Below, one piece after another: positions 1-3,000 of a stretch of 13,285 nucleotides of DNA. The position numbers were made by a program. The DNA is from a virus. Taxonomy: Duplodnaviria; Heunggongvirae; Uroviricota; Caudoviricetes. Numbering within the stretch: position 1 is the stretch's first letter; the number at the start of each line of letters is the position of its first letter. Where the stretch lies: the IMG/VR virus record IMGVR_UViG_2609459822_000007; one strand, written 5' to 3'.

Positions 1-3000
1 AGTAATGGCTGGGTGGAAATCGACAACAACATCGCAGAGAACGCCTTACGGGGAGTGGCCGTAGGCCGGAAAAACTGGATGTTCGCGGGTTCCGACAGCG
101 GTGGTGAACATGCGGCGGTGTTGTACTCGCTGATCGGCACATGCCGTCTGAACAATGTGGAGCCAGAAAAGTGGCTGCGTTACGTCATTGAACATATCCA
201 GGACTGGCCGGCAAACCGGGTACGCGATCTGTTGCCCTGGAAAGTTGATCTGAGCTCTCAGTAAATATCAATACGGTTCTGACGAGTCGCTTACCCTAAA
301 GGTGTGCAGCCGATTACAAATTTTGACGCCAACCGCTACCTCGGAAAGTGGTATGAAATAGCTCGCCTCGAGAACCGGTTCGAACGTGGTCTGGAACAGG
401 TCAGCGCTACTTATGGAAAACGGAACGACGGAGGGATTCGTGTACTTAACCGTGGATACGATCCAACGAAAAATAAATGGAGCGAGAGCGAAGGTAAAGC
501 ATACTTTACTGGAGATACTAAAACTGCAGCGTTGAAGGTTTCGTTTTTTGGCCCCTTCTATGGTGGCTATAATGTAATCAAACTGGATGATGAGTATAAG
601 TATGCTCTTGTCAGTGGTCCGAACAGAGAATACCTATGGATTCTGGCAAGGACCCCAACTATTCCAGATAAAGTAAAAGCAGACTATGTGCGAACCGCTC
701 AAAAGTTGGGATTCAATGTCAATGAATTATTATGGGTTAAACAATAAAATCCCTACCCGAAATAATACTTATTAGAAAAAAACCAGCCTTTGGGGAGGCT
801 GGCTAAATCAGGAAACAAGCTGTTATATGATAATAACTACGTTGCGATTCCAACATTTAAAATGTTAGACTAATGAGAATCAGACAGCAACTTTTCCTTT
901 AATTATTTCGAACAATCAGCATCCATCTCCAATCGGAGATCCAACACCATCAGCATACCCTCCACTACGCCCTCAGCTTTCTGGAGCATCCTGCCAACCC
1001 AACAATCAGATCGCCCATGCTTACGTGCAAGCGCCATAAAAGTCATGCCGCCGACATAATAGTCCACCAATAAATCATGCAAATCGCTGTTGTTCTTTTT
1101 CAGACGGGCCATGCACCCGCAAATGATCATCGCGTCATCGTCACAACATTGTGGGCGAGATTTTACTTTTGAAGGAATTAATCCCTTAAAACCGGCGGCA
1201 ATGGACGACCAGGTCACATCTTCATGATTATTAGCCGCCCACGCTCCCCAACGCTCAAGAACCATCTGAATATCACGCATCAACTTACTCCACAAAACTC
1301 AGACCAGAACGCCAATTACAAGCAAAAATCAACAAAACAGTATTAGTTGATTGTTATCTCTGACTTCATACTCCTGCTCCTGTCAGGGTTTTGGCGTAAT
1401 TCTTCAGTATTCGGTAATCGGTCAAAACAGAGCCGGGGAAACGATATAAGCGCAGGCGCATCCAGCGGTGGCGAAGAAGTTCTGCCATATAAAACTCAAA
1501 CATCATTCATCTCCCTGTTCAGTGATGGTCAGTTCCAGCTTTCCACCTTTGATAACAGGCATCTTCACAACGCGGTAATCAACGACCTGAGCATCATCCA
1601 GCCAGAAACCTGCTTTAGTGAGTGCGTCAAAAGCGGCTTTTTGCAGATTATCCAGGTCACGGCTACGGCGATCCGGCATGTGACACTCAATGCGGATTTT
1701 CACAGGCATAGCCAGGCCGATATCCAGCATTGCGTTTTTAATGATTCGGGCGACGTTATCGCGGTATGCCTGCCCCCTCTGCACTGACGTGCGTGCGCCC
1801 GCGATTATGGCGGTAATAGCGATTATTGCTCGGAGGCCAGGGTAATGTGATACTGTAGGTATTCACGCCTTAATAACCCCCTCTTTCAGCCAGATAACCT
1901 GTGTTCTCGCCATACCTTCCAGCGCGCATTCTTTTGCATATGCAGCATCGACAAAATGTGTGCGGCGGTCGATTTCGTCGTGGCAGGCAGAACATGCAAT
2001 GGTGGCAATCAGGTCTGGCGGTTTGATACCGGTACCGCACAATCCAGCCAGCCGGATATGTGCCAGTACAGACGTTTCAGAATTGCCATTACATACGCCA
2101 GGGATTCTTACCTGGCATTCCCGACCACGCGCTGCTTTTCTCAAATCAGCCATGATTCCTCCTTGCTGCCAGTCGCAACCATTTTTTATCAACCAGGCTA
2201 GCGGTATATCCGAGCAGTGTTGGTATTTCGGATGGTTTCAGCTCAGGCCTACGCTTACGACGATTTGATACTCTGTAGATGTGTCCGTTCATGACACGAA
2301 TAAGCGGTGTAGCCATTACGCCTCCTGCTTGTCGCGGAGCAGCTGGAACTCGCAGCTCTGCGGAATAGTCAGGTGGCAGCCAATATTCATCGCCCAGGCT
2401 TCAACCTTACACAGGAAGACATACATCTCTCCGGTATCAAGGTCGGAGGTATGGCGTAACGACTGGATAGTGGTGATATCACCGGTTACGACATCAACCA
2501 GGTCTTTGGTTTCATAACCGAGATATGTGTGTTTGAGAGCATCTTTTACCCAAGCTGGAGTGGCGAACGTTTTACCCCTGCTGATGAGGTATTCACTGAT
2601 TTCGCTGTACCACATGTGGCTGAGTGCATTCTGGGAAAGACTGCGTTTCTCACGCCATATTTCCAGACATCTGTTATCACTTAACCCATTACAAGCCCGC
2701 TGCCGCAGATATTCCCGTGGCGAGCGATGCCGACCGATAGCGGTGAAGTTGCCGCGATGTAATTTGATGCCGTCTTGTGAGAGGTTCACGCTTCACCTCC
2801 GCAGAGGTCAAACGCTAGATGCAAAGAATTGCAGGTGCATTTCTGCATCTGTGAAGGGAGAAGAGAGTTTGGATTGTATGTGCGCATAAACGTCCCCGTT
2901 TAGCGCAGAAGTCACCGGAGTTGTTCAGGCTCCGGTGACATAATTATGCCGTGTTGATTTCCCAAAATCAAAATCGATAGAATTGCTCCTTCTTAAAACA

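Follow-up and report, generated by a model that had tools for sequence, protein, structure and literature searches.

A lambdoid phage in its canonical form has a late cassette in which the Q gene is followed by the promoter PR', a pause element, a terminator and the late genes (bioRxiv 10.1101/651190). The locus described here raises the question of what has become of the late genes, since Q and its terminator are followed by a convergent, truncated lipocalin gene and by the end of an IS element. The window analysed comprises 13,285 nucleotides and corresponds to the entire contig JHDK01000121.1 of the draft assembly GCA_000601355.1, whose end falls inside the IS. According to the original prediction, non-phage DNA stood here in place of lysis genes in a partly degraded prophage. 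The evidence presented below indicates instead that the region is very probably an ordinary Q-dependent late-gene switch from a widespread lambda/DLP12-like E. coli prophage, in which a lipocalin native to the lineage has been cut by an IS. The arrangement is already-known biology, with little importance beyond annotation.

Gene content of the Q-proximal region

Q, the terminator, the lipocalin and the IS were all found where the original prediction had placed them, exactly or within a few bases (Table 1). Direct observation establishes what these four parts are, where the IS joins the lipocalin, and how the genes are arranged in sibling prophages and viable phages. Q closes the early-right (nin) operon, after rusA and ylcG. 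Its product matches the Pfam profile Phage_antitermQ (PF06530) over its full length (E 2.5e-51) and is homologous to the phage 21 Q structures 6P18 and 6JNX (E 1.9e-8); the mechanical ORF reaches further, to a TTG at 1295. The protein is identical to that of phage IdasGreatGrand, about 98% identical to that of the Lambda_ev087/1H12 group, and 81–87% identical to Q of 933W (81%) and of DLP12-type phages (ev207 and D2, about 87%). No holin or endolysin gene is present within the 900 bases downstream of Q, which are the rest of the contig to its end, in agreement with the earlier statement that lysis genes are missing from the few hundred bases after it.

Table 1. Features of the Q-proximal end of the window. 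Promoter scores were obtained with a crude sigma-70 matrix built from consensus frequencies; they rank candidates and do not settle PR'.
Feature	Position	Strand	Remarks
IS66-family (ISCro1) right end	1–294	+	Transposase C-terminus 13–264; terminal inverted repeat ...GACGAGTCGCTTAC ends at 294
Blc-type lipocalin moron	295–747	+	Convergent with Q; cut by IS after codon 24; remaining reading frame open
Intrinsic terminator (tR' equivalent)	776–804	-	Acts on transcription from the Q side; stem 804–781, T run 782–776
Best PR' candidate	827–853	-	-35 TTGGAA (853–848), 15-nt spacer, -10 TATCAT (832–827); score 8.13, the top score
Rival PR' candidate	862–890	-	TTGCTG, 17-nt spacer, TAACAT; score 8.04 in the same scan
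Q antiterminator gene	903–1280	-	125 aa; related to Q of 933W, DLP12 QuuD and phage 21
ylcG homologue	1366–1506	-	Last small nin-region gene before Q; annotated ylcG in siblings; PF26818 recorded for the called gene in L006
rusA with +1 frameshift	1503–1866	-	Five C at 1773–1777 (+ strand), four in intact copies

The frameshift in rusA, which had been taken together with the absence of lysis genes as a sign of decay, is real and results from the extra base in the run of C residues, as seen in an alignment with the copies of K-12, IdasGreatGrand, ev087, Nord58 and strain 2452. Sibling copies of the gene are also flagged as frameshifted by PGAP. Since the same frameshift occurs in IS-free siblings whose lysis, head and tail modules are complete, it says little about viability, and viable phages with rusA in frame show only that this gene is variable. 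The region is damaged by an IS, but the notion of a partly degraded prophage draws little support from rusA.

The lipocalin has Lipocalin_2 (PF08212) as its Pfam match (E 4.3e-44) and E. coli Blc as its structural match (PDB 3MBT, E 4e-66). As with the Blc structures 1QWD, 2ACO and 3MBT, the similarity spans the full lipocalin domain; the window gene differs from this outer-membrane lipocalin in being phage-borne and in lacking the lipoprotein signal. Intact copies, such as the 174-aa protein encoded in L001 (11929–12453), have a signal peptide and a lipobox (LIAC). Compared with them, the window copy has lost its first 24 codons and with these the start codon, the signal peptide and the lipobox cysteine (MKLWPVLTGIALSFTLIAC...). 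Because the lipoprotein signal is missing, this copy is a pseudogene from which no exported protein can be made. The promoter region has likewise been removed from the window by the IS; in a lysogen, the gene is presumably expressed from a promoter of its own. The same gene occurs in phages PP925829 and LR597644. The copy in L005 carries a 1-nt deletion in the signal-peptide region.

The IS portion matches Pfam PF03050 and PF13817 in its transposase C-terminus and is 100% identical over its 294 nt to an annotated ISCro1 copy in strain Nord58. That copy is 2,698 bp long and has an imperfect left repeat, GTAACCGGCTCATTTAAACC, of which the right repeat is an imperfect copy (19/26 by eye). The right flank of the IS within the lipocalin gene is CCTAAAGG.

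Terminator and candidate late promoter

The terminator announced by the original prediction has a stem of 9 pairs, 5 of them G-C, with 7 consecutive T after it, and its RNA fold of -16.3 kcal/mol corresponds to a z of -2.9 against shuffled sequences. Because terminator-like sites in positions 1–3000 are no more numerous than in shuffles (3 found, 2.7 in shuffles), its significance rests on its position, its strand and its conservation in related phages. It lies 33 nt past the lipocalin stop codon and is identical in IdasGreatGrand and ev087, and a terminator is annotated in 933W at the equivalent place relative to Q and pR'. The hairpin formed on the + strand has no U tract (z -0.3), so that the terminator serves the transcript arriving from the Q direction. 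An Rfam scan of positions 1–3000 gave only sub-threshold chance matches, on the terminator hairpin.

The proposed position of PR' is more tentative. Three weak candidates were found in all, and the best candidate requires a 15-nt spacer. Transcription from it would start near 820 and produce a terminated leader of about 45 nt. It is the positional homologue of the annotated pR' of 933W (-10 TATCAT + GATAAGAG), and its position also matches that of the highest-scoring site in DLP12 and ev207 (TAATAT + ATAACAG). The rival candidate has a predicted start near 855, which would give a leader of about 80 nt; DLP12-type phages do not conserve it, and ev087 has a weaker -10 at this site. Multiple alignment of the regions downstream of Q in the window, DLP12 and 933W was too poor for direct transfer of the 933W pR'/qut annotation; all that the three have in common is a short motif, a -10 hexamer followed by ATAA(C/G)AG. 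Neither a Q-binding repeat nor a sigma-dependent pause element could be recognised convincingly: a -10-like hexamer lies at the expected place in DLP12 (TATAGT) and 933W (TACATT), whereas the homologous segment of the window (CTGATT/TGATTT) does not have one. The study cited above for the canonical cassette gives no Q-binding sequences for the Q of the window (bioRxiv 10.1101/651190).

In the scheme suggested by these features, a constitutive PR' just downstream of Q would yield a short RNA ending at the terminator, and Q, once made, would load onto RNA polymerase at PR' and allow read-through of the terminator and of everything behind it. Behind the terminator, phages of this lineage carry first the convergent lipocalin, a YbgA-family gene and an AraC-type gene; holin, endolysin, Rz and the packaging genes come after these. 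In the present strain, ISCro1 has interrupted the lipocalin gene after codon 24 and so inactivated it, and the draft assembly breaks off within this repeated element, leaving in the window only Q, the terminator, the lipocalin stump and the IS end. By analogy with 434B and DLP12, which carry an IS5 in the equivalent nmpC moron, Q-modified polymerase may be able to cross the IS, here a 2.7-kb IS66 element.

Cargo between Q and the lysis genes in related phages

The block formed by Q, the terminator and the lipocalin was found in 12 phage records with 95–99.5% identity. Over window positions 295–1400, DNA identity amounts to 99.5% with IdasGreatGrand (PP925829) and 95% with the Lambda_ev087 group. 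In the lambdoid coliphages that carry it, the lipocalin is followed by a YbgA-family gene, by the gene for an AraC-type regulator (HTH) and by holin, endolysin and Rz. The terminator, the spacer separating it from Q and the convergent orientation of the lipocalin are the same in IdasGreatGrand and the Lambda_ev087/1H12 group as in the window; these phages differ from it in having an intact lipocalin, a contiguous YbgA-HTH-holin-endolysin-Rz series, no IS and rusA in frame.

The same organization is widespread among prophages. The full block, from Q through lipocalin, YbgA, HTH, holin and endolysin to Rz, is present in at least 621 of the 5,426 complete E. coli genomes, and IS-free sibling prophages that are 99.5% identical to the window over 295–13285 occur in 424 complete genomes. 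In these siblings, integrated beside espL1/ydiY, the order is Q-lipocalin-YbgA-HTH-essD-rrrD-rzpD-iss-nohD-terminase-portal-capsid-tail. Sequencing errors were considered as a source of the many alignment gaps against relatives and rejected, the differences being clustered in two small mosaic patches.

Every examined relative with a Q of this family has cargo in this interval, which measures 1.9–5 kb in 933W, DLP12, 434B, ev207 and D2, so that the premise of lysis genes lying within a few hundred bp of Q fails for this family. The slot holds a lipocalin in the window, a porin in ev207, D2, DLP12 and 434B, and tRNAs with stx in 933W. The lipocalin is therefore a moron, occupying a fixed site that also receives alternative cargo and being carried by viable phages, for which it is probably dispensable. 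It has been described as such before: blc is listed as a moron for over 50% of a set of 19 cultivated lambda-like coliphages (Mathieu et al. 2020, PMC6969025). A literature search combining antiterminator, lambdoid and lipocalin returned nothing, and the moron status is taken from that publication. On sequence comparison, the roughly 3 kb that separate Q from holin are cargo native to the phage lineage of the window, as are nmpC in DLP12 and stx2 in 933W to theirs. A cargo separating Q from the late operon, which the original prediction had listed among its options, is thus what the YbgA/HTH/holin order of the related phages bears out. Such cargo, even an opposite-facing gene, is normal for the Q family and is no sign of prophage decay.

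Two well-known systems illustrate this point. The cryptic prophage DLP12 (qsr') of E. coli K-12 has the same nin order as the window (emrE, ylcJ, ybcK, ybcL, ybcM, ybcN, ninE, ybcO, rusA, ylcG, Q), and from its Q gene onwards reads quuD-nmpC::IS5-essD-rrrD-rzpD. As in the window, a convergent gene for an outer-membrane protein lies right after Q and is split by an IS, and the lysis cassette of DLP12 is found kilobases further on; phage 434B carries the same Q-nmpC::IS5-holin segment. The DLP12 moron is a porin, whereas that of the window is a lipocalin, followed in its lineage by YbgA and AraC-type genes, and the IS is IS5 in the former and ISCro1 (IS66 family) in the latter. Unlike that of DLP12, the early region of the window is complete (repressor, cro-like gene, O, P, ren, bet, exo), and its siblings are not located at argU. 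In the Stx2 phage 933W, the 70 nt that follow Q contain the annotated promoter, qut and terminator, and the -10 is the TATCAT seen in the window, but the sequences downstream of this hexamer are otherwise dissimilar. About 5 kb of cargo (tRNAs, stx2AB and a yjhS-like gene) precede its holin; this cargo runs in the direction of the late operon and depends on Q, whereas the first cargo gene of the window is convergent.

What lies beyond the IS

A contig ending in an IS tells nothing of what comes next: as the sequence stops there for assembly reasons, the presence or fate of lysis genes past the element cannot be read from it. The exact IS/lipocalin junction is absent from complete E. coli genomes, species-representative genomes and JGI metagenomes, and without a complete E. 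coli genome sharing the event the far side of the IS cannot be read from a relative either. We lean slightly towards a simple insertion with intact late genes beyond. The reciprocal junction predicted in that case consists of the missing lipocalin 5' end (...CCGACACCACCTAAAGG / ...GCCCCGACACCACCTAAAGG with the 8-bp duplication CCTAAAGG) before the left end GTAACCGGCTCATTTAAACC, and scans for it found no match. Transposition by default yields a simple insertion, and the sibling Br_167_kylling, which has an IS3-family element in its lipocalin gene, keeps its lysis genes directly beyond it along with everything else. The main competing scenario, a substantial possibility although short of probable, is the deletion option of the original prediction: an IS-associated deletion that took with it the 5' end of the lipocalin gene, the YbgA and HTH genes and the holin-endolysin-Rz cassette, so that the prophage would no longer lyse its host. 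Among complete genomes with the same type of IS in the same orientation, the closest is Nord58, where the IS sits in the same gene. There, the ISCro1 flanks differ (left GTTTTAAT, right GAAGGTAA), so that an 8-bp duplication is absent, and the IS is followed immediately by nohD/terminase, which means that the lysis cassette is gone. Decay is also seen elsewhere in this prophage family, strain 2452 having a truncated rrrD and no holin. However, the junction in the window is at 295 and that of Nord58 at the equivalent of 489, and no special variants are common to both prophages; the two IS events therefore look independent. Lysis genes directly beyond an IS, which the original prediction had named among the evidence that would speak against it, are documented for the one IS3-family sibling and not for the ISCro1 sibling.

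Two further explanations question the junction or the lipocalin itself. An assembly artefact, in which an IS end was mis-joined to the lipocalin at the end of the contig while the real gene is intact, would fit with a junction only 294 nt from the contig end in a 2014-era draft assembly, and with the absence of this exact junction from the genome and metagenome collections scanned. It is nevertheless very unlikely: the break coincides with the terminal base of the IS inverted repeat, which is what a genuine insertion produces, and independent IS insertions into the same gene in other assemblies indicate that such events are common. The view from which the question arose, that host or foreign DNA replaced the lysis genes after the terminator and that the lipocalin is where a prophage remnant breaks off, could appeal to the close resemblance to chromosomal E. 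coli Blc and to the "wrong" direction of the gene for a late function. It is now extremely improbable, given that an identical arrangement, with lysis genes further downstream, is found in cultivated plaque-forming phages and, with complete late regions, in hundreds of prophages, and that the gene is a published moron.

IS insertions in the lipocalin gene

IS insertions have broken the lipocalin gene in several prophages. In all, at least seven junctions that look independent were counted in this one 525-bp gene, but the look-up with the truncated 147-aa ORF favours copies with a damaged 5' end, and this bias makes it unusable for claiming an IS hotspot. That a lipocalin moron beside tR' is a preferred landing site for IS elements, or is selected for inactivation, is quite unlikely; if true, convergent transcription at tR' might be making an IS target, or the phage lipocalin might carry a fitness cost. 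The junctions are varied. ISCro1 is involved in both the window and Nord58, at different junctions, and a different IS66-like end is present in L008. The ends in L007 and L009 belong to what we take to be IS2. The end in L013 was read as IS3-like, and the element in Br_167_kylling is annotated as a member of the IS3 family.

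The block downstream of Q

The Q gene of this prophage is followed by an intrinsic terminator, a convergent truncated lipocalin gene and the end of an IS element, in an order that the original prediction gave correctly, nearly to the base. This observation was confirmed, and the interpretation placed on it is partly supported. The feature is one already known: a cassette of Q and tR', the terminator downstream of the late promoter PR', next to a known moron (a phage-borne cargo gene) that was hit by an IS and is cut off by the contig end. The table below lists the features concerned.

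Features of the window, with the matches on which they rest
Feature	Coordinates	Strand	Details
IS66-family element end (ISCro1)	1-294		100% identity with the annotated ISCro1 of E. coli Nord58
Lipocalin gene, convergent with Q	295-747	+	Lipocalin_2, E 4.3e-44; E. coli Blc structures, E 4e-66
Intrinsic terminator	stem 804-781; T run 782-776	- (same as Q)	9-bp stem, run of 7 T
Candidate PR', TTGGAA-15-TATCAT	853-827	-	crude matrix scan
Candidate PR', TTGCTG-17-TAACAT	890-862	-	crude matrix scan
Q antiterminator, 125 aa	903-1280	-	Pfam Phage_antitermQ, whole profile, E 2.5e-51
rusA, +1 frameshift	1503-1866	-	one extra base in C run 1773-1777 (G run on coding strand)
ybcN	2316-2789	-	patch at about 2657-2727
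DLP12-type cargo block	3004-6994		between ren and ybcN

The lipocalin gene had been taken for non-phage DNA, a reading contradicted by its occurrence in phages; it is phage DNA. Positions 295-1400 match 12 phage records across their full length, with 99.5% identity to phage IdasGreatGrand (PP925829) and about 95% to the Lambda_ev087/1H12 group of cultivated lambdoid coliphages. In IdasGreatGrand and the ev087 group, Q is followed by the terminator, the convergent lipocalin, a YbgA-family gene (DUF523/DUF1722), a gene for an AraC-type HTH protein of 243 aa, holin, endolysin and Rz; a terminase is seen past Rz in IdasGreatGrand, and the ev087 record stops soon past Rz. The ev phages are temperate coliphages cultivated from infant gut strains, and 'blc, a bacterial lipocalin' is among the morons in more than half of 19 lambda-like phages (PMC6969025). 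Of 5,426 complete E. coli genomes, 621 have 80% or more of the Q-to-Rz block and 424 have 80% or more of 295-13285, the best of the latter covering all of it at 99.5% identity. The sibling prophage of E. coli 190693, whose integrase adjoins espL1, carries past Q the lipocalin, YbgA and HTH genes, then essD, rrrD, rzpD, iss, nohD and the terminase, portal, protease, capsid and tail genes; its Q stop codon and holin start are about 3.1 kb apart. Intact lipocalin copies have 24 extra codons (MKLWPVLTGIALSFTLIAC KAPTP...) that contain the start codon, the signal peptide and the lipobox; the window copy, lacking all three, is dead.

Lysis genes had also been expected within a few hundred bases of Q, which fits lambda itself but not the relatives 933W, DLP12, 434B, ev207 and D2. 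Cargo past Q is the rule for this Q family. In 933W (Q 81% identical), the annotated pR', qut and terminator lie at most 70 nt from Q and are followed by tRNAs, stx2AB and a yjhS-like gene. The E. coli K-12 cryptic prophage DLP12 and phage 434B have a convergent porin gene, nmpC, split by IS5 (the DLP12-type Q is about 87% identical, a value for the type and not for these two individually), and ev207 and D2 (Q 87% identical) have a convergent intact porin gene. The canonical cassette consists of the Q gene, PR', a pause element, a terminator and the late genes, and Q-loaded polymerase ignores terminators (bioRxiv 10.1101/651190), so that late transcription can cross kilobases of cargo, a gene on the opposite strand included.

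The Q switch

Q is homologous to the solved Q protein of phage 21 (6P18/6JNX, E 1.9e-8). The terminator lies 98 bases past the Q stop codon, and the lipocalin stop codon 33 bases past the terminator. The RNA fold of the terminator has an energy of -16.3 kcal/mol (z -2.9), and in the fold check the hairpin on the opposite strand had no U tract. IdasGreatGrand and the window share a 100% identical Q, and a single base differs in the spacer between Q and terminator. Viable phages use the same sequence, so the Q switch of the window is presumably functional.

The position of PR' is less clear-cut. A consensus scan returned only TGGAGA-18-AATAAT (931-902), which overlaps the end of Q, and a crude matrix scan gave two candidate sites with nearly equal scores. 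The site at 853-827 is homologous in position to the pR' annotated in 933W (-10 TATCAT, then GATAAGAG) and also to the site that scores highest in DLP12 and ev207 (TAATAT, then ATAACAG); the window reads TATCAT, then ATAACAG. With PR' at this site, polymerase not modified by Q would make an RNA of about 45 nt. In the window, the segment where DLP12 has TATAGT and 933W TACATT shows nothing recognisable as a -10-like pause element.

In a search with 295-1400, matches to DLP12/434-type phages cover only query positions 627-1106. Q proteins of 87% identity are thus joined to largely unrelated downstream control regions, which share as a remnant a short motif around the candidate -10 (ATATAACAG...GTTT...TTAG). 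At the DNA level, high identity to DLP12/434-type Q genes ends near 921, some 18 nt short of the stop codon at the 3' end of Q. Besides Q, the DLP12 lysis operon is reported to be under further control by RpoE and Hha (PMC7918800).

The IS element and what may lie beyond it

That the window has no lysis genes says nothing about their absence from the genome, because the window is a whole contig of a draft assembly and ends inside the IS, a repeat that the assembler could not cross. At the junction (294/295), the lipocalin abuts the last base of the IS terminal repeat, and an assembly artefact at this point is quite improbable. Two sibling prophages illustrate what may lie beyond. Lysis genes directly past the IS, the arrangement named in the original prediction as speaking against it, are seen in E. 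coli Br_167_kylling, where an IS3-family element splits the same lipocalin gene into two halves, both still present, and YbgA, HTH, essD, rrrD, an Rz-type gene and nohD follow directly. Nord58, on the other hand, has nohD/terminase directly past ISCro1, and its lysis cassette has been deleted. There ISCro1 has the same orientation as in the window, with its right junction 194 bp further into the lipocalin gene; the sequences on its two sides, GTTTTAAT and GAAGGTAA, are unrelated, and therefore no 8-bp duplication surrounds it. Since no private variants common to the window and Nord58 were found, the two ISCro1 events are treated as independent. We put a simple insertion in the window at slightly better than an even chance; an insertion accompanied by deletion or rearrangement, as in Nord58, is a serious possibility that falls somewhat short of one. 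The sequenced phage isolate 434B carries IS5 in its counterpart of this moron; by analogy, late expression need not be blocked by a simple insertion.

Other assemblies have independent interruptions of this phage lipocalin gene, by a variety of IS elements. These comprise the annotated IS3-family element of Br_167_kylling (L023, 5385-6613), the ISCro1 of Nord58 (L002, 9597-12294), another IS66-like end (locus L008, 1-80), an IS3-like end (L013, 1-125) and two ends that we take to be those of IS2 (L007, 1-76; L009, 1-28). In locus L005, one nucleotide is deleted from the signal-peptide region (about 2510). The look-up that yielded most of these hits is biased towards damaged 5' ends, and therefore supports no claim of an IS hotspot.

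Gene order and signs of decay

The right arm of a lambdoid prophage lies on the minus strand of the window. In order, it has bet/exo, kil, a repressor gene, one cro-like and one YdaT-type gene, followed by O, P and ren, then by the DLP12-type cargo block of emrE (efflux pump), ylcJ, ybcK (serine recombinase), ybcL (PEBP-family protein) and ybcM (AraC-type regulator), and finally by ybcN, ninE, ybcO, rusA, ylcG and Q. Apart from the cargo block, the early region is complete. DLP12 has the same block, but in a heavily decayed prophage at argU, whereas the siblings of the window prophage are integrated beside espL1/ydiY.

Three lesions can be seen in the window, all of them in dispensable genes: the frameshift of rusA, the IS inside the moron and an odd, apparently IS2-derived patch in ybcN. 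To call the prophage partly degraded, as was originally done, is fair; to call it defective exceeds the evidence. The rusA frameshift, offered in support, is weak evidence of decay: it occurs in prophages whose late regions are still complete, that of 190693 among them. It is common to Nord58, 2452 (a further E. coli strain with a sibling prophage) and 190693 and absent in K-12, IdasGreatGrand and ev087. It marks an old lineage and is no sequencing error, and lytic growth does not require rusA.

Differences between the window and the sibling prophages are concentrated in the ybcN patch and in 1456-1552, with about a dozen SNPs elsewhere in 13 kb. In the patch, 70 nt replace the 52 nt found in K-12 and 190693, and the ORF is still open (157 aa vs 151, with 24 residues in place of QIQPYLEEGKCFRMVLKP). 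At least 63 nt of it (2657-2719) are identical to the string preceding the element terminus in L007, presumably the sub-terminal part of the right end of IS2; the final 13 nt of this end are missing. The patch was found in one piece in no complete E. coli genome; candidate origins are a remnant of IS2, a template switch and an assembly artefact.

Positions 1456-1552 (ylcG and the 3' end of rusA) hold about 12 substitutions relative to otherwise near-identical siblings, which alter the RusA C-terminus (17 residues vs VTKGGRLELTITEMGNE); the cluster looks like a small recombination patch. At the right contig end (13285), exo is cut about 11 nt short (in 190693, locus L022, exo ends at 30984 and the match at 30973), which may be another assembly break at sequence repeated among prophages.
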